A stretch of 64,000 bases of DNA, from the NCBI GenBank assembly GCA_947629515.1, contig CANRDY010000001.1, positions 24,948-88,947 of the forward strand. Direction: 5' to 3'. Positions within the stretch are counted from its first letter, which is position 1; every line of letters begins with the position of its first letter. Source of the stretch: an uncultured Clostridia bacterium. GTDB lineage: Bacteria > Bacillota > Clostridia > Christensenellales > Borkfalkiaceae. Of the stretch, positions 15,005-57,200 are shown piece by piece. Below the pieces are notes generated by a model. It was not told where the DNA came from, ran no database searches, and saw nothing but the letters and a program-made list of their open reading frames with translations. Made by a program: the position numbers and the translations under genes.

Positions 15005-15156
15005 GCGGGGGCGCGTTTGCGCCCCCGCGGCAAGCGTTCCGCTTGAGCGGCGTGTCGCAAGCGTTTCGCTTGATCAAGTGTCTTAACAGCGTGAAAGTAA
15101 AACAGCGGAAAGGCTGTTCAACGGGAAGCGGCGGGCGGCATTTTGCCGCCCCCGCG
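15005..15156 (+). repeat. repeat modules I, B (with internal duplication), I
   Basis: GCGGGGGCGC/GCGCCCCCGC hairpin. CAAGCGTTCCGCTTGAGCGGCGTGTCGCAAGCGTTTCGCTTGATCAAGTGTCTTAACAGCG...GGCTGTTCAAC. GCGGCGGGCGGCATTTTGCCGCCCCCGC. Confidence 0.85.
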
Positions 15157-15264
15157 GTGAAATTTTTTTGCTTGCGCAAAAAAGTGAAATTCGCACTGCG
15201 TGCGAGTGAAATTTGCGGCGTTCCGCCGCAAGTGAAATTTTTTACCTACGGTAAAAAGTTATGG
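15157..15264 (+). repeat. A array: 4 x (GTGAAAT + perfect hairpin), closed by GTTATGG
   Basis: GTGAAAT TTTTTTGCttgcGCAAAAAA GTGAAAT TCGCACtgcGTGCGA GTGAAAT TTGCGGCGttcCGCCGCAA GTGAAAT TTTTTACCtacGGTAAAAA GTTATGG. Confidence 0.9.
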
Positions 15265-15862
15265 TAAACGTTTCTTTTAATCAAGTATCTTAACGGCGGA
15301 GAAATAAGCGAGCGTTTAGGCTGTTCAACTTGAACAACCCCCACCTTTAATTCCTCCCCCTTGTAATTTCTACGTCCTCATTCCCTCCCCTTTTTCAAGG
15401 GAGAGGGTAGGGTAGGGGTAGCGTGAGCACGCGGGGAGCAAAGAACAAACGGCTTTTGGTTCGCGTTTCAAAGTGCAAGCACAGACCACGGGGGGATTCT
15501 CTCACTCAATCCCGCGCCTACGGCGCGTGTCATATCCCTCGAAATGACAGTGCCTTATGTTGCTCCGATATTATTTAAAATTGCTCCCCCCTCTTAAATT
15601 CTCCCCCCTCGCAAGCGAAGGGGGAGGGTTGGGTATGGGGAAGTGCGCGAAGGAGCGCGAATATTTTTTCCTTATTCCCTCCCCCTTGGTAAGGGGGAGG
15701 AATTGAAGGTGGGGGTTGCAATTACGAAGTAAAAAAGTCCGAAGAAGCAAGCAAGACAAGGCGAACGAGCGACGACCGCAGCGAGTGTACAATGAAGTAC
15801 ACGAACAAGGCGGAGCGACGTTCAACACAGTATTGCGTAGCTTATTCGGGCTTTGCGGGAGC
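15265..15862 (+). repeat. composite repeat: degenerate B, E, C (15460-15580), E, E, F; right end abuts desulfurase stop codon
   Basis: Module sequences match copies at 56868-56955, 30611-30805, 1236-1291 and 63222-63375. Confidence 0.9.
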
Positions 15863-19023: not shown

Positions 19024-19335
19024 GGCGGGCGCGCGATTTTAATCGCGCGCCCGCGCGTTTATGCGCGGGTCTCATAGCGTTCGAAATGACAGTGCCTTAA
19101 TGTGCTTCGATATTATTTAGAAATGCTCCCCCTCAGTCCGCAAAGCGGACAGCTCCCCCTCGCGGCTTGCCGCGAGGGGGAGCGAATTAGGTTAGCTGTT
19201 AATGCGCAAAGGAGAGCGAATGGGGTCGGTTGTTAACGCTCGAGAGAAGCGGATAGTTAAGGGCTATTTTCGCGAAAAGAGCGAATAGTTAAAAGTTATT
19301 TTTGCAAAGAACGAACAGTTTAAATTTTTCCCTCT
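19024..19335 (+). repeat. repeat modules I, C 3' half, E variant, then ~5 degenerate 27-30-nt tandem units
   Basis: GGCGGGCGCGCGATTTTAATCGCGCGCCCGC. CGCGGGTCTCATAGCGTTCGAAATGACAGTGCCTTAATGTGCTTCGATATTATTT. CCCCCTCAGTCCGCAAAGCGGACAGCTCCCCCTCGCGGCTTGCCGCGAGGGGGAG. Then GAGCGAATTAGGTTAGCTGTTAAT-like units at 19178-19330. Confidence 0.8.
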
Positions 19336-25385: not shown

Positions 25386-26050
25386 GCGTTCCGCTTGAGC
25401 GGCGTGTCGCCGCGGACGGGCGTCTTAACGACGGGGAAGTAAGACGGCGGAAAGGCTGTTCAACGGGAAGCGGCGGGGCGCGTTTGCGCCCCGCCGCATT
25501 TTTAAATAATAACTGTCACCCTGAGCAAGCGAAGCGCGTCGAACGGGTCTATTCCGCAGTATAGCGGAGCTTTTTATAAGGTGAATATTATTTGGAAGTG
25601 TTAACGCGTTTCAAAGTGCAAGCACAGACCACCTTGGGATTATCTCACTCAATCCCGCGCCTACGGCGCGTGTCATGTCGTTCGAAATGACAGTGCCATA
25701 ATGCGCTCCGATATTATTTGGAAGTCCTACCCCCACCCTGCCCTCCCCCTCCAAATGGAAGGGGAGGAATGGGCGATTGTTAGGTTGCTGTACGAAGTGA
25801 GAAACTTTGGAGGCGAGCGGGGATTTCTCAAAACAGCGGACACCCGCTGTTTTGCCCCGCGAGGTGAGCTTGCGCATAGTGCAAGGCGCAAGCGGTGACC
25901 GAGAACGGCGTTTTTCCTTGCGCCGTTCGAGAAGCGAGCAGAACGAGGAGCGCGAGCAGTTTGCGAGGGAGCTTACAATGACGTAAGTGACCGAGCAAAA
26001 GCGGAGCGCGACAATGTTATGCGAAGCATATACGAAGTTTAACGGTAGCC
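25386..26050 (+). repeat. composite repeat: B, I, D (25505-25570), C (25604-25724), E variant, F with nested H (25813-25933), G
   Basis: Each module matches the copies listed in the summary key. Ends 4 nt before the stop of 26055-27365. Confidence 0.9.
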
Positions 26051-27667: not shown

Positions 27668-28345
27668 ATGCGGCGGGCACTTTTCAAAGTGCCCGCCGCA
27701 AGCGTTCCGCTTAACTATGTGTCTTAACGACGTGAAAGTAAAACAGCGGAAAGGCTGTTCAACACGAGGGCTGACCCCCTCCCTTGTATTCCCTCCCCCT
27801 GTTCTTTCTTCTATTCCCTCCCCTTCCGTTTCGGAGGGGGAGGGCGAGGGTAGGGGTGGCGGGAGTGCATAAGGGGCAATGAACGTACAATTTTTCGGTT
27901 CGCGTTTCAAAGTGCAAGCACGGACCACGGGGGGATTCTCTCACTTAATCGCCCGCGCATTTATGCGCGGGTCTCATAGCGTTCGAAATGACAGTGCCTT
28001 ATGTTGCTCCGATATTATTTGAAAGTGCACCCCCTCAGTCCGCGTTCGCGGACAGCTCCCCCTCTCGGCAAGCCGTGAAGGGGAGCGAATGGCGCGGGCG
28101 GAAGTATGGTTGCCCTTGCAATTACGAAGTGAGAAAGCCCGCAAGAAGCAAGTTATGCAAGGAAAGCGAGGAAAACCCGAAGGAGCTTACAATGACGTAA
28201 GTAACTGAGGGTTGCCGCAGCTTGACACAGCTTTATGTTGAACAGCTCAAACGCTCGGCTACCCCAACGCTGTTAAGACACTTGGTCAAGCGGAACGCTT
28301 GCGACGCATATACGAAGTTTGCGGCAGTTATACGAAGTTTACGGG
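27668..28345 (+). repeat. composite repeat: I, B, E (long), C (27900-28026), E, F, inverted B, G x2; overlaps the last codons of 28339-28983
   Basis: GCGGCGGGCACTT/AAGTGCCCGCCGC; CAAGCGTTCCGCTTAAC...GGCTGTTCAAC; CCCTCCCCTTCCGTTTCGGAGGGGGAGGG; remaining modules as in the key. Confidence 0.9.
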
Positions 28346-30520: not shown

Positions 30521-31061
30521 ACATTGAAATTTTTTTGCGAGAATTGTGAAATTTTTGCGCGGGTGCGGGGGAAAGGGACGGGACGCTTACTCAATAGCTT
30601 ATTTTTTGATACCGTTTCAAAGTGCAAGCACGGACCACCTTGGGATTCTCTCGGTCAATCCCGCGCCTACGGCGCGTGTCATATCCCTCGAAATGACAGT
30701 GCCATAATAAGCTCCGATAATATTTGAAATGCTCCCCCCTCTTTAATTCTCCCCCCTCGCAAGCGAAGGGGGGAGGGTTGGGTATGGGGAAGTGCGCGAA
30801 GGGGGAGTTTAGGGCGTTCGGTCGTCCTTGCAATTACGAAGTGAGAAACTTTGTAGATGCGAGCAGAACGAGGAGCGCGAGCAGTTTGCGAGGAAGCGTA
30901 CACAGAAGTACGTAACCGAGCAAAAGCGGAGCGCGACACAGCTTTATGTTGAACAGCCTATCCGCCGTATTACCTCAACGCTGTTAAGACACTTGGTCAA
31001 GCGGAACGCTTGCGAAGCATATACGAAGTTTTCGGGAGTATACGAAGTTTAACGGGAGCTA
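30521..31061 (+). repeat. composite repeat: A fragment, C (30611-30729), E, F, inverted B, G x2; last nt shared with stop of 31059-32033
   Basis: Modules as in the key. Terminal sequence GCATATACGAAGTTTTCGGGAGTATACGAAGTTTAACGGGAGC-TA. Confidence 0.9.
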
Positions 31062-32329: not shown

Positions 32330-32358
32330 TTGACAAACGAAAAACAATGTCGTAAAAT
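32330..32358 (+). promoter_or_regulatory. consensus sigma-A promoter of small RNA 1
   Basis: TTGACA - 17 nt - TAAAAT. Confidence 0.65.
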
Positions 32359-32364
32359 AAAATC

Positions 32365-32446
32365 ACAAAGGGGAACCCAAAGCGGTTGACCTCGACAAGT
32401 TTAAAAAATAACCGTCAAGCTATCAACTATCGGCGGTTATTTTTTT
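32365..32446 (+). ncRNA. predicted ~80-nt non-coding RNA, 3' end antisense to small ORF 1
   Basis: Runs from the predicted TSS (~7 nt after the -10) to the bidirectional terminator. No ATG in the transcript. Paralogous to 35668-35757. Confidence 0.4.
32403..32446. terminator. bidirectional intrinsic terminator shared by small RNA 1 and small ORF 1
   Basis: AAAAAATAACCG ... CGGTTATTTTTTT: A-run/T-run-flanked stem usable on both strands. Confidence 0.65.
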
Positions 32447-32544
32447 ACGCGCTTAATCGCTATGTACTCGACTTCGTCGAGCAACAGCTCAAGCTGTTTA
32501 AGGAGCTCGCAGAGTTGCGATACTAATTCGCTAAACTCGGTCAT
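32437..32544 (-). CDS. small ORF 1, 35 aa (MTEFSELVSQLCELLKQLELLLDEVEYIAIKRVKK)
   Basis: AAAGGAGGTG SD 8 nt upstream of ATG 32544. Stop codon lies inside the terminator stem. Paralogue at 35748-35852. The track lists a longer 97-aa frame that reads through repeat H. Confidence 0.45.
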   Translation of the reverse strand: MTEFSELVSQLCELLKQLELLLDEVEYIAIKRVKK

Positions 32545-32599
32545 AAGCCTCACCTCCTTTGAAAGAAAATGTTTTACTCCATTTTCCCCCTCGAGAGGT

Positions 32600-32704
32600 C
32601 TTCTCGCGCGGCGTAAGGAGCAACGCCGCGCTCGGTCACCGCTTGCGCATTGCACTATGCGCAAGCTCATCTTACACAAGAAAACAGCGGGTGTCCGCTG
32701 TTTT
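32600..32704 (-). repeat. module H (inverted relative to other copies), between promoter and SD of small ORF 1
   Basis: Matches 25833-25933 and 36335-36433 in reverse complement. Contains AAAACAGCGGacacCCGCTGTTTT. Confidence 0.85.
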
Positions 32705-32766
32705 AAGAATTTTGTGTTCGACGCCTGCAAGGATTCCCCCTTGCTTCGAAAATTAATATTAAAATT

Positions 32767-32795
32767 AGTATAAACTTTTTGTAATATTTTGTCAA
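32767..32795 (-). promoter_or_regulatory. consensus sigma-A promoter of small ORF 1
   Basis: Minus strand TTGACA - 17 nt - TATACT. Confidence 0.6.
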
Positions 32796-32875
32796 TAAAA
32801 ATTTTAATTAAATCGCGCGCGGGCGTTTGAGAACGCCCGCGCGCATACAGTACTTAGATATTATTGAGAAAACGC

Positions 32876-35581: not shown

Positions 35582-35632
35582 GGCGGCGGGCGTTGATACG
35601 CCCGCCGCACAATAAAAAATTTCGCAATATGC

Positions 35633-35661
35633 TTGACAAACGGAAAGCAATGTCGTAAAAT
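35633..35661 (+). promoter_or_regulatory. consensus sigma-A promoter of small RNA 2
   Basis: TTGACA - 17 nt - TAAAAT; near-identical to 32330-32358. Confidence 0.65.
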
Positions 35662-35667
35662 AAAATC

Positions 35668-35757
35668 ACAACAAGGGCTTGCCCTAAACGGTCAGCCCCG
35701 TCGGCTAATTAAAAAATAACTGCCTTCCGCGACTAAACTTTGGGCGGTTATTTTTTT
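35668..35757 (+). ncRNA. predicted ~90-nt non-coding RNA, 3' end antisense to small ORF 2
   Basis: From the predicted TSS to the bidirectional terminator, with no ATG. The first ~25 nt resemble both small RNA 1 and the 5' UTR of small ORF 2. Confidence 0.4.
35711..35757. terminator. bidirectional intrinsic terminator shared by small RNA 2 and small ORF 2
   Basis: AAAAAATAACTGCC ... GGCGGTTATTTTTTT. Confidence 0.65.
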
Positions 35758-35852
35758 ATTGTCAAAAAGATTTTATCTTTTGTGACGCGGACGACCTCTA
35801 TGTACCCCTCGTCGAGTAAACTCAACAAAAAGGTTATAAGCTCGATCCTCAT
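35748..35852 (-). CDS. small ORF 2, 34 aa (MRIELITFLLSLLDEGYIEVVRVTKDKIFLTIKK)
   Basis: Hand translation (below the ORF-track length cut-off). AAAGGGGGTG SD 8-9 nt upstream of ATG 35852. Stop lies inside the terminator stem. Shares the LLDE..YI...(R)V.K pattern with small ORF 1. Confidence 0.45.
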   Translation of the reverse strand: MRIELITFLLSLLDEGYIEVVRVTKDKIFLTIKK

Positions 35853-35918
35853 AAAAATTTCACCCCCTTTACGGGGCATGATTAACCGCCTTCGGGAAAC
35901 CCTTGTTGCTTGGATTTT

Positions 35919-35947
35919 ATTTTAGTATTATTGTTTTAATTTGTCAA
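35919..35947 (-). promoter_or_regulatory. consensus sigma-A promoter of small ORF 2
   Basis: Minus strand TTGACA - 17 nt - TAAAAT. Confidence 0.65.
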
Positions 35948-35966
35948 GAGGTTTTTTTATTGAAGT

Positions 35967-36631
35967 GCGCGCGGGCGTTTGAGAACGCCTGCGCGCGTAT
36001 ATTATGTTGTATTACATTATTATTTAAATATGAGTTCGCGTTTCAAAGTGCAAGCACGAACCACGGGGTCGAGTGCGGCGGTGTTCCTTACGCCGCGCGA
36101 GAAATTCTCTCGCTCAATCCCGCGCCTACGGCGCGCGTCATATCCCTCGAAATGACAGTGCCTTAATGCGCTCCGATAATATTTGAAAATGCTCCCCCCT
36201 CTTTAATTCTCCCCCCTCGCAAGCGAAGGGGGAGGGTTGGGTATGGGTAGGGCGCGAATGGGGAGTTTAGTGCGCTTGATTACCATTGCAATTACGAAGT
36301 GAGAAAGTTCGAAGGCGAGCGGGGATTTCTCAAAACAGCGGACACCCGCTGTTTTGCCCCGCGAGGTGAGCTTGCGCATAGTGCAAGGCGCAAGCGGTGA
36401 CCGAGCGCGGCGTTGCTCCTTACGCCGCGCGAGAAGCAAGCAAGACAAGGCGAACGAGCGACGACCGCAGGGAGTGTACAATGAAGTAAATGACTGAGCA
36501 AAAACGTAAGCGCGACACTGCTTTATGTTGAACAGCCTATCCGCCGTATTACTTCCCCGCTGTTAAGACACTTGGTCAAGCGGAACGCTTGCGACGCATA
36601 TACGAAGTTTACGGGCTTTGCGGTAGCTTAT
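35967..36631 (+). repeat. composite repeat: I, C (36036-36190, carrying a partial H hairpin at 36070-36103), E, F with nested H (36315-36433), inverted B, G; ends 4 nt before alaS stop
   Basis: Modules as in the key. Confidence 0.9.
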
Positions 36632-38431
36632 TTACTCTAAAATTGCTTTAATGCGCTTAACTCCCGCCGACACGTTCTCCTGCTTGACGATTTTGAATAC
36701 GCCCAGCTCGCCCGTGCTTTTGGCGTGCGGTCCGCCGCAGATCTCCCGCGAAAAATCGCCTATAGAGTAGGTCTTTACCCTTTCGCCGTACTTGCTTTCG
36801 AAAAGCCCCACAAACCCGCGCGATTTGGCTTCGTCGTAGCTCATCTCTTCCATAACGACGGGCACGTCCTTTTGTATCTGCCCGTTGACAAGCTCCTCTA
36901 CCGCCGTCACCTCTTCGGGCGTGAGCTTGCGCGAAAAGTTAAAGTCGAACCGAAGCCGCTCTTCGGTGATATTGCTGCCTTTTTGCTCTATGTCGGGCGA
37001 GAGCACTTTTTTGAGAGCGGCGTGCAAAAGGTGGGTGGCGGTGTGCAGGCGGGTGGTCTCTTCCTTGTGGTCGGCAAGCCCGCACGCAAACTTAGCCTCG
37101 CTCCCCGCGCGGCTCTTTGCCTGATGCTCGGCGAACGCGGCGGCGTAACCCTCCACGTCGACTTCAAGCCCCTTTTCCCTCGCCATTTCGCCCGTTATTT
37201 CGACGGGGAACCCGTAGGTATCGTAGAGGTGGAACGCCGTTATTCCGTCTATCTTTCCCCCTTGGGGGAGAACGGCGGCAACTTTTTCGAACTCCTTTAA
37301 GCCCTGTTGAAGGGTGCGCGAGAACTTGCCCTCTTCCTTTTCGAGTTCCTCGTATATCTTTGAGGAATTTTCGGTAAGTTCGGGGTAGACCTCGGCGTAT
37401 TTATTTATTATGGCGGAGGCGATGTCCTTTAACGAACCCTGCGCAAGCCCGATATTTCTGCCGAAGCGCACGGCGCGCCTTATTATTCTGCGAAGAATGT
37501 AGCCCTGATCGGTGTTCGAGGGCACTATCCCCTTTTTGTCGCCGAGCATAAACACGGCAGTGCGCGCGTGGTCGAGCACGACGCGGAACGCGCGGGTAAC
37601 TTCGCCCCCCTCGGAATACTTCCTGCCCGTCAGCTTTTCGATAACGGCGATCGCCTCTTCGAAGATGTCGGTCTCGTAAACGCTCTCCTTTCCGCCCAAA
37701 ATGCAGAGGGTGCGTTCAAGCCCCATGCCCGTGTCGACGTTGCGCTGTGCGAGCGGTTCGTACTTGCCCTCGGCGTTCTTGTTGTACTGCATGAACACGT
37801 CGTTCCATATTTCGAGGAACGTGCCCGCGGGGGCTTTGTCGAAGTCGAACGCCCCCAGCTTGTCGGCTTCGGCGTGGTTGCGGATTATGTGCATTTCGGT
37901 ATCGGGACCGCACGGACCGGTAGTTCCCGCGGGTCCCCACCAATTGCCCGATTTGGGCAAGAAGAATATGTGCTCTTTTTTTATACCGCATTCAAGCCAG
38001 AGCTTCGCGCTCTCCTCGTCGCGCGGGCAGTCGCCGTCGCCCGCAAAACAGGTAACGGCTATGTCGTCGGAGGGTATCCCCAGATACTTGGGCGAGGTAA
38101 GAAACTCGTAAGACCACGGTATCATCTGCTCTTTGAAGTAGTCGCCGAGCGACCAGTTGCCCAACATTTCGAAGAAAGTACAGTGCGCGCTGTCGCCCAC
38201 CTCGTCGATATCGCCCGTGCGCACGCACTTCTGCACGTCGCAAAGCCGCCTGCCCGCGGGGTGCTTTTCGCCCAAAAGATAGGGCACAAGGGGGTGCATG
38301 CCCGCGGTGGTGAACAGAACCGTGGGGTCGTTTTCGGGAATGAGCGAGGCGGACGGTATGACCGCATGCCCCTTCTCCGCAAAAAAGTCAAGATAGAGTT
38401 TGCGCAGCGTTCGGCTTGTAAAATTTTTCAT
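36632..38431 (-). CDS. alaS: alanine--tRNA ligase, short form (599 aa; ends after editing domain, no C-Ala domain)
   Basis: LRKLYLDFFAEKGHAVIPSASLIPENDPTVLFTTAGM, FFEMLGNWSLGDYFK, editing-domain HTATHLLH and CGGPH motifs. Confidence 0.9.
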   Translation of the reverse strand: MKNFTSRTLRKLYLDFFAEKGHAVIPSASLIPENDPTVLFTTAGMHPLVPYLLGEKHPAGRRLCDVQKCVRTGDIDEVGDSAHCTFFEMLGNWSLGDYFKEQMIPWSYEFLTSPKYLGIPSDDIAVTCFAGDGDCPRDEESAKLWLECGIKKEHIFFLPKSGNWWGPAGTTGPCGPDTEMHIIRNHAEADKLGAFDFDKAPAGTFLEIWNDVFMQYNKNAEGKYEPLAQRNVDTGMGLERTLCILGGKESVYETDIFEEAIAVIEKLTGRKYSEGGEVTRAFRVVLDHARTAVFMLGDKKGIVPSNTDQGYILRRIIRRAVRFGRNIGLAQGSLKDIASAIINKYAEVYPELTENSSKIYEELEKEEGKFSRTLQQGLKEFEKVAAVLPQGGKIDGITAFHLYDTYGFPVEITGEMAREKGLEVDVEGYAAAFAEHQAKSRAGSEAKFACGLADHKEETTRLHTATHLLHAALKKVLSPDIEQKGSNITEERLRFDFNFSRKLTPEEVTAVEELVNGQIQKDVPVVMEEMSYDEAKSRGFVGLFESKYGERVKTYSIGDFSREICGGPHAKSTGELGVFKIVKQENVSAGVKRIKAILE

Positions 38432-44939: not shown

Positions 44940-45216
44940 TTCGAGGGCTTTGCCCGACCCCTCGCCAAAGGCGAGACCGAAGCAAGCAAACTTCTAATAA
45001 TAACTGTCACCCTGAGCAAGCGAAGCGCGTCGAACGGGTCTATTCCGCAGCATAACGGGGTTTTTGTAAGGTGAATATTATTTGGAAGTGATAGCGCGTT
45101 TCAAAGTGCCCCGAGCAGACCACGGGGGGATTCTCTCACTCAATCCCGCGCCTTTGGCGCGTGTCATATCGTTCGAAATGACAGTGCCTTAATGTGCTCC
45201 GATATTATTTGGAAGT
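44940..45216 (+). repeat. composite repeat: D-like, D (44996-45060), C (45094-45216); C tip supplies the stop codon of 45205-45966
   Basis: AACTGTCACCCTGAGCAAGCGAAGCGCGTCGAACGGGTC; CGTTTCAAAGTGCCCCGAGCAGACCAC...CCGATATTATTTGGAAGT. Confidence 0.9.
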
Positions 45217-50045: not shown

Positions 50046-50630
50046 TGATTGCGCAAAAAAGTGAAATGAAAAAGTATGCGGCGGGCACTTTGAAAAGTGC
50101 CCGCCGCTATTTCCGATAATAACTGTCACCCTGAGCAAGCGAAGCTCGTCGAACGGGTCTATTCCGCAGTATAGCGGAGTTATTATAATAAGGCGGTTAT
50201 TATTTAAAATAGGGTACGCGTTTCAAAGAGCAAGCACGGACCACAGGGGGATTCTCTCACTCAATCGAACCCGCTATCGCGGGATTCTTATGTCGTTCGA
50301 AATGACAGTGCCATAATGTGCTCCGATATTATTTAGAAGTGCTTGAACGAAGTAAATTGCAATTACGAAGTGAGAAACTTCGGAGATGCGAGTTATGCAA
50401 GGAGCGCGCGGATTTTGCGATAGGAGCTTACAATGAAGTAAGTGTCGTACCGAAGGCGTTAGCCTTACCGAGCAAAAACGCAAGCGCGACACCGTTTTAT
50501 GTTGAACAGCCTATCCGCCGTATTACCTCAACGACGTTAAGACACTTGGTCAAGCGGAACGCTTGCGAAGCATATACGAAGTTTAACGGGAGCAAAGCGC
50601 GCGGGCGCGGCAAACGCCGCGCCCGCGCGC
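50046..50630 (+). repeat. most complete composite repeat: A fragment, I, D (50115-50180), C (50216-50340), F, inverted B, G (ends 50593), I hairpin (50597-50630)
   Basis: Modules as in the key. Fills almost the whole degV / LMW-PTP spacer. Confidence 0.9.
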
Positions 50631-51900: not shown

Positions 51901-51949
51901 GTCCACCAACGCCCCGCGACGCTTTATGCGTCGCGGGGCGTTGGTGGAC
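51901..51949 (-). terminator. 22-bp perfect hairpin following and including the tmRNA 3' end
   Basis: Minus strand GTCCACCAACGCCCCGCGACGC ataa GCGTCGCGGGGCGTTGGTGGAC. Confidence 0.7.
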
Positions 51950-52324
51950 GAGTCGGGACTTGCACCCGAGTCTTGACGGTGTCGTCGGAGCTTTCTACAT
52001 ACTTATTCCGCCTTTGGCTTGACCGCGCTTCCCGACGGACGGGGCGGGCGCGGGGCAGACCGCAAAAAATTTTGCACGGGCGCGCGCGGTCGGACGCGCG
52101 CTGTGCTATCCGTTAAGATGACGCTCTGCGCCGTCAACGGAATACGGCGCAAAACGGACCGCTTTAAGTTAAGCGGCGAGCGCGCAGCTTGCAGCTCTGT
52201 ACGAGGGGAAAGCTACGACTTTTTCGCTTTTATCTGCGTTTGAATTTAGTTTCCGTTTTTACAAAGCCGAGCCTTTGGTATGCTTTTCTCCTTCTCTTCC
52301 GCCAATCGAATCTGAAACTCGCCC
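51942..52324 (-). ncRNA. ssrA: tmRNA (ssrA), ~383 nt
   Basis: Minus strand 5' GGGCGAGUUUCAGAUUCGAUUGG... and 3' ...UCGGGUGCAAGUCCCGACUCGUCCACCA. The 7-bp acceptor stem GGGCGAG/CUCGUCC has a G3.U70 pair, followed by discriminator A and encoded CCA. Internal tag frame GCA GAU ... GCG CUC GCC GCU UAA (52237-52169) ends ...ALAA-stop. Confidence 0.8.
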
Positions 52325-56686: not shown

Positions 56687-56840
56687 GTTTTTGCTAACGC
56701 AAAAGTGAAATTTTTTTGCGTAAGCAAAAAAGTGAAATTTGCGGCGTGCCGCCGCAAGTGAAATTTGCACTTCGTGCAAGTGAAATTTTTGCCTTACGGC
56801 AAAAGTGAAATTTTTTGCGCTATCGCGCAAAAAGTTGTGG
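56683..56840 (+). repeat. A array, largest copy: 7 hairpins; first linker GTGAGTT contains the TGA stop of apgM; closed by GTTGTGG
   Basis: Stems TTTTGC, TTTTTTGC, TTGCGGCG, TTGCAC, TTTTGCC and TTTTTGCGC, each with a perfect complement. Loops taac/gtaa/tgc/ttc/ttac/tatc. GTGAAAT linkers at 56705, 56732, 56758, 56780 and 56805. Confidence 0.9.
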
Positions 56841-57200
56841 TAAAAATTATGCGGCGGGCGCCGCGGTAACCCCCCACCTTTCATTCCTCCCCCTTGTAAT
56901 TTCTCCGCCCAATATTCCCTCCCCTTTCTCAAGGGGGAGGGGAGGGTAGGGGTTTTTCTTATAATATCGGAGCATATTAAGGCACTGTCATTTCGAGGGA
57001 TATGACACGCGCCGTAGGCGCGGGATTGACCGAGATAATCCCAACGTGGTCTGTGCTTGCTCTTTGAAACCAACACCCACATTTCTGTAATAATTACTCC
57101 GCTATGCTGCGGAATAGACCCGTTCGACGCGCTTCGCTTGCTCAGGGTGACAGTTATTATTATAATGCGGCGGGCGACTTTTCAAAGTCGCCCGCCGCTT
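56841..57200. repeat. composite repeat with inverted modules: I, E, inverted C (56957-57072), inverted D (57097-57160), I hairpin
   Basis: E is in the usual orientation, but C and D are reverse-complemented relative to all other copies. GCGGCGGGCGACTT/AAGTCGCCCGCCGC hairpin at 57168-57199. Confidence 0.9.

Follow-up and report, generated by a model that had tools for sequence, protein, structure and literature searches.

A stretch of 64,000 nucleotides (nt) from an uncultured Clostridia bacterium (assembly GCA_947629515.1, contig CANRDY010000001.1, positions 24,948 to 88,947 of the forward strand; hereafter the window, with all positions counted from its first letter) contains a gene pair of ~320 bp that we describe here as a candidate type I toxin-antitoxin (TA) module. 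In this pair a 34-codon open reading frame (ORF) faces an antisense small RNA (sRNA), and two promoters converge on a hairpin of 54 nt. The features of the module are listed below; P1 denotes a helix that joins the two ends of the mRNA, and SL1 the stem-loop that holds its Shine-Dalgarno (SD) sequence.

35633..35661, plus strand: sRNA promoter, TTGACA, 17 nt, TAAAAT (σ70-type, 11/12 consensus positions)
~35668..~35760, plus strand: antisense sRNA of ~93 nt, without an ATG, both ends placed by inference
35668..35693, minus strand: complementary to the sRNA 5′ domain and forming the 3′ strand of the P1-like helix, in read-through mRNA only
35675..35698, plus strand: sRNA hairpin 1 (GGGCU.GCC / GGU.AGCCC) from the predicted fold, with the family motif ACGGUYAGCC
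35707..35760, both strands: central hairpin, with 18-nt arms (35707-35724 and 35743-35760) that are 89% complementary and an 18-nt loop
35748..35852, minus strand: ORF of 34 codons plus stop, encoding MRIELITFLLSLLDEGYIEVVRVTKDKIFLTIKK, with ATG at 35852 and TAA (35750-35748) in the 3′ arm of the hairpin
35860..35881, minus strand: SL1, sequestering the SD (UCAU-G-CCCC GUAAA GGGG-GUGA), from the fold and from its alignment to the SD stem-loop of Rfam BsrG
35884..35909, minus strand: mRNA 5′ leader, the 5′ strand of the P1-like helix, from folds and the Rfam BsrG alignment
35947-35919, minus strand: mRNA promoter, TTGACA, 17 nt, TAAAAT (σ70-type, 11/12 consensus positions)

Setting of the module

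An earlier, sequence-only reading of the window had proposed the promoters, the central hairpin, the plus-strand RNA lacking an ATG, the SD, the 34-codon ORF and the location of its stop codon within the hairpin, and each was found where that reading had placed it. The start of the sRNA was set ~7 nt after the -10 box and its end in the U-tract, and transcription of the mRNA would begin near 35912 on the minus strand. Promoter-like sites are frequent here, with 10 in the 2.5-kb region compared with 2.1 ± 1.7 in shuffled sequences, and the features of the module go beyond what chance would give. The same reading had set the module in an AT-richer patch, directly downstream of a tandem helix-turn-helix (HTH) regulator gene. 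Both descriptions hold: the GC content is 0.41-0.43 inside the module compared with 0.5-0.6 in its surroundings, and the upstream neighbor encodes two HTH_3 stretches. The HTH gene was nevertheless dropped as a part of the module, as homologous modules have other, unrelated neighbors, and the HTH protein itself had no relatives in a genome scan. At Rfam gathering thresholds no family was detected in the region of the module, and weak Rfam matches to STnc370, uxuA, STnc150 and a microRNA were discarded as terminator or low-complexity noise.

A conserved ORF encoding a soluble-looking mini-protein

The ORF is preceded by the SD sequence AAAGGGGGTG, 8 nt upstream of the ATG at 35852. A further in-frame ATG at 35879, inside the SD stem-loop, gives the 43-residue form found in public gene calls; it is absent from most homologues, which are called at 34 residues. 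The deposited annotation (35748-35879, minus strand) is probably nine codons too long, the conserved ORF being one of 34 codons, and because public annotation uses the 43-residue start an exact look-up of the 34-residue peptide came back empty.

All of 12 close copies (12/12) have exactly 34 codons and none has a frameshift. Across these 12 copies the proportion of synonymous differences (pS) is 0.43 and that of nonsynonymous differences (pN) 0.089, giving a pN/pS of 0.21. Among 11 close copies, identity at codon positions 1, 2 and 3 is 0.85, 0.93 and 0.74, with position 3 the most variable. The low pN/pS and the invariant length therefore mark the ORF as a real gene, and the conservation as coding sequence on which the earlier reading had staked its proposal is borne out. 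The relatives that it had left to be sought also exist: a profile search returned at least 166 homologous clusters, nearly all of 34 residues, and the window itself holds a diverged second module. None of the 166 clusters carries a Pfam domain, and the sole name given to them by any source is “hypothetical protein”.

The consensus of the family is MxxxFLRLLxxLVExGxIxSFRVTKDKIYIIIKK, in which the SFRVTKDK turn is invariant. AlphaFold2, run with 93 sequences, predicts a helix (residues 3-14) followed by a β-hairpin (strands 18-23 and 28-32) with a predicted local distance difference test (pLDDT) score of 92.3. The peptide has 11 charged residues, a longest uncharged run of 9 and a C-terminal KK, and its maximal 17-residue Kyte-Doolittle window reaches 1.50, compared with a mean of 2.55 in a hydrophobic sister class described below. 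The protein is thus predicted to be soluble-looking and not a transmembrane helix, in agreement with what the letters alone had suggested.

Searches for known relatives were negative throughout. Neither the 34- nor the 43-residue form matched a Pfam or NCBIfam model, and the protein is not a Hol_Tox member (PF16935). The PDB held no significant match to the peptide by sequence, and Foldseek against the PDB returned nothing significant (best E 0.84); its top rows were the recognition helix and wing of winged-helix proteins, and uS8, which is a resemblance and not membership. An exhaustive HMMER search of 1.84 billion representatives gave 77 matches, almost all of 30-70 residues, and did not reveal a parent domain family. 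No relatives of the peptide turned up among viral contigs, plasmids or phage records, and its motifs are mentioned by no paper in the collection searched.

The antisense RNA and the central hairpin

The sRNA is predicted to fold into a 5′ hairpin followed by a terminator (-28.9 kcal/mol, z = -3.4) and scores 82.3 bits with the covariance model R1. This scaffold begins with the hairpin containing CGGUUAGCC, hairpin 1, which corresponds to stem-loop SL3 of SR4, the antisense RNA of the bsrG/SR4 system. The central hairpin that follows is the terminator of the sRNA and, on the mRNA, an SL3-like hairpin enclosing the stop codon. It is preceded by an A-run and followed by a T-run, flanks which make it a possible bidirectional terminator. 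Its geometry and A/T-run flanks fit a shared two-way terminator; its loop of 16-18 nt is atypical for a terminator, and the co-variation of P1 (below) speaks for read-through on the mRNA strand. The hairpin was missed by the terminator scan because the scan allows loops of 3-8 nt only.

Two further elements could in principle bring the sRNA into contact with the start of the mRNA. A direct repeat in the DNA, TAACTGCCTTC / TAACCGCCTTC (35717-35727 and 35883-35893), provides the sRNA with 11 bp of complementarity to the mRNA leader; only an 8-nt core of the repeat (TAACYGCC) is conserved, and this lies 17-25 nt upstream of SL1, off the start. The other element is CAGCCCC, which the sequence-only reading had put forward as complementary to the SD. 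The heptamer is present at 35693-35699 and can pair with the SD at 6/7 positions, although the pairing itself receives little support: cognate sRNA/SD duplexes reach -15.1 compared with -14.5 kcal/mol for non-cognate ones (permutation p = 0.024). RNAduplex, applied to the sRNA 5′ domain and the translation start, produced long, loop-filled duplexes. Pairing of the sRNA 5′ domain with the SD was rejected as the main interaction, given a cognate advantage of just 0.6 kcal/mol, and a better account of the CAGCCCC segment is that it supplies one strand to hairpin 1 and to P1.

The mRNA leader, the predicted SD lock and a probable closing helix

In the mRNA, a predicted SL1 of 8 bp covers GGGGGUGA, and across the predicted folds of 57 mRNAs of the wider family (defined below) the SD region is 80% paired on average. 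The leader includes GGCGGUUA (35883-35890), a copy of the 3′ arm of the central terminator, and the motif GRCGGTY occurs in 57/71 mRNA leaders compared with a background of 6.2%.

The sRNA and the leader of the same module are alike in the same sense. Over the 26 nt before the motif their similarity is 6.73. Exchanging partners at random inside each peptide class gives 3.94 ± 0.23, and the observed value was not reached in any of 5000 such permutations (p < 1/5000). Variants specific to a module that follow CGGTT, for example GACCTC, TGCTC and GTGCTC, are common to both of its RNAs. If two RNAs read alike, how could they interact? RNAs of the same sense cannot pair, and the co-variation is most simply explained if the partner of the leader is the sequence complementary to the sRNA 5′ domain, the two strands forming P1 within a read-through mRNA.

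Folding is consistent with this. An RNA of 258 nt that reads through to 35655 is predicted to form P1, SL1 with the SD, SL2 and the central hairpin as SL3, with -95.3 kcal/mol and z = -6.6, compared with z = -3.4 for the 206-nt form that stops at the central hairpin. P1 forms in the predicted folds of 55/57 family modules, where on average 23 of the first 35 nt are paired; the average falls to 17 when the 3′ tail is swapped for that of a module of the same class (Wilcoxon p = 4e-9). P1 would be conditional on read-through of the mRNA. The earlier reading had estimated that the two RNAs overlap by ~45 nt, a figure that is probably a minimum: the co-variation of P1 suggests an mRNA that crosses the whole sRNA gene, and at least part of the mRNA probably does so. 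Between the -10 box of the sRNA and the sRNA start there is no hairpin, only a U-rich tract, and the next hairpin is found at 35608-35583.

Conservation and dispersal of the unit

Homologues of the peptide with 82-95% identity are found in related metagenome-assembled genomes (MAGs), in quite different neighborhoods. These include SpoIIE/purA, the pyr operon (two tandem copies), a 5′-nucleotidase gene and a Mob/resolvase element. The DNA similarity spans the -35 box of the sRNA to the -35 box of the mRNA, and the flanks show none. Single MAGs hold three to five modules on different contigs.

The pattern of conservation within the unit was assessed as mean pairwise identity among 11 close copies. 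For the sRNA promoter it is 0.97 at the -35 box and 0.87 at the -10 box, falling to 0.58 in the spacer, and for the mRNA promoter the hexamers reach 0.76 and 0.64 compared with 0.36 for the spacer. The sRNA 5′ domain (0.89) and the 3′ arm of the central hairpin (0.96) are likewise well conserved; the linker (0.49) and the central loop (0.52) are not. As hexamers, stems and coding sequence are conserved relative to spacers and loops, both promoters and both RNAs appear to be under selection. On this comparative evidence the module is a real, self-contained, dispersed unit that recurs in uncultured gut Clostridia.

An sRNA scaffold with three classes of cargo

A terminator-pattern scan of 185,579 species genomes recovered at least 117 stretches, and the figures given for this family apply among the matches listed. 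The pattern fixes the 3′ arm of the central hairpin and part of its 5′ arm, and the reading frame was set by the KK-stop in the A-run. At least 70 distinct loci have an SD-preceded ORF of at least 18 codons on the opposite strand. Their products fall into three classes: class a (33-36 residues) resembles the 34-residue protein of the window, class b (35 residues) resembles the product of the second module in the window, and class c (22-31 residues) comprises strongly hydrophobic peptides with a single, transmembrane helix, some of which begin with the TxpA/BsrG-like MxTYEAL.

The motif RVCGGYY is located 8-42 nt upstream of the terminator in 66/70 loci, compared with 4.9% of random background windows, and in 62 of these 66 it is accompanied by a suitably spaced σ70-type promoter. 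Among pattern matches that lack such an ORF the motif is found in 29/57 (Fisher p = 1.7e-8). Hairpin 1 is predicted in nearly all of 64 family sRNAs, with the motif as its 3′ half, and its outer stem changes in a compensatory fashion (GGGC/GCCC, GGAAC/GUUCC, GAGC/GCUC). Within classes a and b alone the covariation of hairpin 1 is modest, with one pair changed on both sides. A covariance model built from classes a and b only gave class-c sRNAs 45-55 bits, and terminator-only controls (Bacillus, Patescibacteria and others) 31-40 bits. A plain MAFFT alignment of the 64 sRNAs shifts the 5′ strand of hairpin 1 by one register between classes, for which reason RNAalifold detected the terminator and nothing else in it; the RNAalifold consensus was replaced by per-sequence folds together with the covariance model.

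Class c provides the connection to characterized toxins. One class-c peptide scores 23.5 bits with Pfam Hol_Tox, compared with a cut-off of 23.3. A near-identical peptide is encoded at a Propionispora sp. locus (L100, 6437-6670) whose mRNA passes the Rfam BsrG threshold (59 bits vs 55) and whose sRNA scores 47 bits with R1. An additional 5′ hairpin in the L100 sRNA doubles, on the opposite strand, as the terminator of the mRNA, an arrangement also found in B. subtilis. The predicted sRNA scaffold is thus common to loci with non-membrane cargo and to loci of classic hydrophobic type I toxins.

Two further observations concern these loci. Loci resembling bsrG/SR4, with TxpA/BsrG-type peptides, occur in Negativicutes and Peptococcaceae (L100, L102 of Sporomusa acidovorans, L063, L113, and L037/L101 of a Peptococcaceae MAG), and many loci have two or three tandem copies of the sRNA (L006, L010, L013, L016, L033, L063, L064 and L070).

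Relationship to known type I systems

In the bsrG mRNA, structure probing shows that nt 1-35 and nt 232-262 together form helix P1, that SL1 has a 4-bp GC region containing the SD, and that the 5′ part of SL3 contains the stop codon (PMC3834814). The first contact with SR4 is made between the SL3 loop and the SR4 terminator loop, and nt 90-183 of SR4 (SL3 and SL4) suffice for binding (PMC3834814). On binding, bsrG nt 1-33 are released and the SD helix grows to 8 bp, and the duplex is degraded by RNase III (PMC3834814).

Rfam BsrG (RF01412) is the only meaningful model match at our locus (35669-35908, minus strand, 22.8 bits, E 0.0012), and its alignment takes in the SD stem-loop, the pairing of the leader with the 3′ region and the outer helix. 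In it, CAUGCCCC of the leader pairs with GGGGGUGA as the SD stem-loop, GGCGGUU pairs with AACCGCC, and the first nucleotides of the mRNA (CAACAAGGG…) pair with …CCCUUGUUG, a stretch beyond the central hairpin that is complementary to the sRNA 5′ end. As with bsrG/SR4, the genes are convergent and pair at their 3′ ends, a hairpin that forms the complement of the antitoxin terminator has the stop codon (…KK-stop, in an A-run) in its 5′ part, the SD is held in a GC stem-loop SL1, and a long helix P1, here predicted, joins the mRNA 5′ end to sequence downstream of the stop-codon hairpin. The window sRNA (hairpin 1 and terminator) equates to the SL3 and SL4 part of SR4. However, it has ~90 nt compared with 183 nt and lacks SL1 and SL2. 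The window has no separate mRNA terminator (SL4) after P1, whereas L100 does, and its central hairpin looks like a two-way terminator. The cargo differs as well, a 34-residue helix and β-hairpin without a Hol_Tox match standing in place of a 38-residue transmembrane peptide.

The sequence-only reading had instead likened the geometry to that of par/Fst-type loci, a group that comprises par (Fst / RNA I-RNA II) of Enterococcus faecalis pAD1 and the Fst/Ldr family. There are real similarities: the promoters converge, the two genes share a hairpin that resembles a terminator in either direction, the peptides are close in length (33 compared with 34 residues), the SD is concealed within a 5′ stem-loop, and the RNAs are likely to meet first through a kiss between complementary terminator loops. 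The window differs in having no convincingly conserved repeats of the DRa/DRb type over the start codon and no hydrophobic PXXXG domain in its peptide, and in the evidence for a 5′-3′ closing helix that needs a longer mRNA. The Rfam Fst-antitoxin model gave no match in this region even at E up to 10. Judged by alignment and predicted fold, the closest known system is bsrG/SR4 and not par/Fst.

Type I systems of Clostridioides difficile (CD2517.1/RCd8 and others) share with the window the class Clostridia, multiple copies and antisense control. Their toxins, in contrast, have 30-56 residues with a hydrophobic N-terminus and a lysine-rich tail, and are mostly found on prophages or beside CRISPR arrays; no sequence relation between these toxins and the window peptide was seen here. 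According to a review's account of a 2010 survey, almost no type I toxins were found in Clostridia outside C. difficile.

Type I toxins that do not act as membrane peptides have recognized precedents in SymE and RalR of E. coli, RalR being a DNase (PMC4041452). The window protein would join this group if toxic, and it has no sequence or fold similarity to either. Both precedents are larger (SymE has ~113 residues), with unrelated folds, another gene organization, and antitoxins that act in trans or overlap at the 5′ end.

Proposed mechanism and alternative explanations

We consider it likely that the locus is a chromosomal type I TA-like module with the RNA architecture of bsrG/SR4 (TxpA/BsrG group), combined with a shortened antitoxin and a non-membrane cargo. 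The broader proposal of the earlier reading, a convergent mRNA/antisense-RNA module of the type I TA kind, gains support from the conserved promoters, the locked SD and the scaffold shared with toxin loci. General hallmarks of type I systems are visible in the sequence, namely a small ORF, an antisense RNA with its own promoter and an SD locked by structure; the hallmark that is absent is a hydrophobic toxin with a transmembrane helix. The module falls outside the formal definitions of Rfam BsrG, Pfam Hol_Tox and par/Fst, and despite this it would be expected to work like bsrG/SR4.

Under this model, a near-consensus promoter would produce a highly structured mRNA for the 34-residue protein, of which the first ~26 nt would, in the read-through form, pair beyond the central hairpin to close P1. 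By analogy with SR4, the sRNA terminator loop would kiss the complementary loop of the mRNA, and the duplex would spread towards the 5′ end of the sRNA. There the sRNA 5′ domain, which copies the 5′ strand of the mRNA's own P1, would displace that strand. The SD would remain in its 8-bp stem-loop, and the long duplex would be a substrate for RNase III. Because the 16-18-nt loops vary between copies, they are likely specificity determinants between paralogues.

The 34-residue protein may be harmful when over-made, acting on a cytoplasmic target. Toxicity is suggested by the retention of several layers of repression, by sister loci that carry classic toxins, and by the dispersed, tandem, multi-copy distribution. 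A more specific version, which we put forward only tentatively, is that the protein represents a type I toxin of a new kind. Folded and soluble, the mini-protein would reach a cytoplasmic target through its invariant basic hairpin turn, and would have taken the place of a membrane peptide in the ancient bsrG/SR4 RNA chassis. Candidate targets may be nucleic acid, the ribosome or a partner protein. If this first swap holds, the all-helical 35-residue class-b protein may be a second one.

Several points weigh against the bsrG/SR4-like interpretation. The window mRNA scores far below the Rfam BsrG threshold (22.8 vs 55 bits), and the peptide has no similarity to any known toxin in Pfam, NCBIfam, PDB sequences, Foldseek or HMMER searches. 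Toxicity is deduced from architecture and dispersed multi-copy distribution only, and the ends, abundance and processing of the RNAs are all read from sequence. In the wider set, conservation of the terminator and of the KK-stop follows by construction from the fixed terminator pattern of the scan. Unlike bsrG, the module has no dedicated mRNA terminator hairpin downstream of P1; six U follow the central hairpin on the mRNA strand, and many mRNAs may stop there and so be without P1. The P1-like co-variation could also stem from gene conversion between inverted repeats, or from read-through of the sRNA.

How do other explanations compare? In a par/Fst-type module both RNAs would end at the shared terminator with an overlap of ~50 nt, and a second, non-overlapping complementary stretch at or near the translation start would block the ribosome. 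The A-run and T-run that flank the hairpin on both strands, the 11 bp of sRNA-leader complementarity from TAACTGCCTTC / TAACCGCCTTC, an SD held in a 5′ stem-loop as in RNA I, and the 6/7 match of CAGCCCC to the SD would all agree with this. It is nonetheless improbable. The sole RNA-family signal is BsrG, with no Rfam Fst-antitoxin match; of the repeat just the 8-nt core is conserved, for which a place in P1 is an equally good explanation; cognate sRNA/SD duplexes hardly surpass non-cognate ones; and the co-variation, being same-sense, cannot reflect intermolecular pairing of two short RNAs. The peptide, moreover, has no Fst hydrophobic domain. A quite different possibility is that the unit is a non-functional dispersed repeat, such as a palindromic element resembling a miniature inverted-repeat transposable element (MITE), with incidental ORF and promoters. 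The unit is roughly palindromic, matching itself in reverse, and the genome is rich in other short dispersed repeats, but a pN/pS of 0.21, greatest variability at codon position 3, the absence of frameshifts in 12 copies, conservation of promoter hexamers, SD and stems compared with spacers, linker and loop, and a protein family of 166 clusters with a confident fold leave this explanation strongly disfavored.

A third alternative is a module with the same RNA mechanism and a cargo that is not a toxin. The TA chassis would then have been co-opted for a small regulatory or structural protein, for example a binder resembling half a winged helix. The protein is soluble-looking and predicted to be well folded (pLDDT 92, 11 charged residues), its invariant turn suggests a specific binding surface, and the single amphipathic helix of class b would be a second non-membrane cargo on the same chassis. 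The chromosomal location beside housekeeping genes, with no match in phage, plasmid or viral collections, points the same way. On the other hand, the copies are dispersed, tandem, multi-copy and variable in context, with one on a Mob/resolvase element, as is typical of addiction or selfish modules. All the layers that repress a toxin mRNA are retained (the locked SD, P1 and a strong constitutive antisense promoter), and genuine peptides of the toxin type are encoded by sister loci that use the same chassis. We therefore regard co-option as rather doubtful, though less so than a par/Fst-type module.

A second module and other features of the window

Two further hairpins border the module and, like the second module, are listed here.

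35583..35608: GC-rich hairpin after the HTH gene, resembling a minus-strand terminator with the tail CTTACTTTTC, from the terminator scan
35965..35998 (core 35969-35996): GC-rich hairpin GCGCGGGCGTTTGAGAACGCCYGCGCGC, ~20 nt upstream of the mRNA promoter, from the terminator scan
32330..32845: paralogous module in the same orientation, 3 kb from the first and diverged
32361-32446, plus strand: sRNA of the second module, with the same scaffold, 71.6 bits with R1
32437-32544, minus strand: 35-codon ORF of the second module, encoding a different, class-b protein, MTEFSELVSQLCELLKQLELLLDEVEYIAIKRVKK
32795-32767, minus strand: mRNA promoter of the second module

The hairpin at 35583..35608 is possibly a last stop for read-through minus-strand mRNA, a role suggested by its position and form. 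The hairpin GCGCGGGCGTTTGAGAACGCCYGCGCGC has a near-identical copy at 32817-32844, in the same place beside the second module. These are its only two copies in the window, both ~20 nt upstream of a module mRNA promoter. The copy at 35965..35998 is probably an insulator or terminator, and the hairpin may insulate the toxin-like gene against read-through. Several module copies in other genomes have unrelated GC-rich hairpins at their edges.

The class-b protein of the second module is predicted by AlphaFold2 to be a single amphipathic helix (pLDDT 93) and has only seven homologous clusters. The leader motif of this module, GGCG joined to GTTGACCTC, is apparently split by a repeat insertion of ~135 nt, and given the split leader this copy may be disabled or regulated differently. 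A dispersed repeat of ~110 nt, with copies 85-91% identical, is found at 32600-32709, at 36327-36436 (inverted) and at 25825-25934. One of these copies is the insertion in the leader of the second module, and another is in the long non-coding stretch between the first module and an alanyl-tRNA synthetase gene.

That gene (36632-38431, minus strand) is synthetase-like, with only 599 residues and the domains tRNA-synt_2c and tRNA_SAD. The ~630 nt before it (36000-36630) have no long ORF and are full of repeats, and no T-box or other Rfam family was found there at threshold. Intergenic repeats of ~97 nt, 76-94% identical, occur at 36104-36200 and in at least eight further copies (30645-30740, 15496-15592, 25639-25734, 56954-57039, 45130-45214, 27935-28034, 50251-50343 and 19072-19132). 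A companion repeat of ~35 nt (36034-36068) adjoins several of them. The ~97-nt repeats may be MITE-like elements or resemble repetitive extragenic palindromic (REP) elements.

Two matches to Rfam Gut-1 (15155-15243 and 56730-56816) score 52.3 and 56.5 bits compared with a threshold of 50. The motif consists of tandem hairpins separated by GTGAAATTT, and each match lies 140-220 nt from a copy of the ~97-nt repeat, possibly by coincidence. A transfer-messenger RNA gene is located at 51942-52324 on the minus strand (Rfam 106.7 bits).

Significance

Type I toxins are, almost by definition, small membrane peptides, and surveys based on hydrophobicity cannot find loci such as this one. The conserved scaffold of the antitoxin RNA offers another handle, since a single pattern scan recovered dozens of loci in uncultured gut Clostridia, Negativicutes and Peptococcaceae, and the scaffold links them to the experimentally dissected bsrG/SR4. 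On the same RNA chassis there are at least three unrelated types of cargo, two of which are non-membrane mini-proteins that lack known relatives and whose folds are predicted with confidence.

If these mini-proteins are toxic, they would bring a new mechanism of toxicity, and with 34 residues they can be synthesized and are suited to nuclear magnetic resonance; were the toxin-swap proposal true, the RNA chassis would be a portable expression lock, independent of its cargo. If they are not toxic, the family would clearly illustrate how ordinary gene control can take over a TA chassis. Either way, the chassis is a compact and apparently modular RNA device, with variable kissing loops and P1 strand-displacement mimicry, and may be of interest for RNA engineering.

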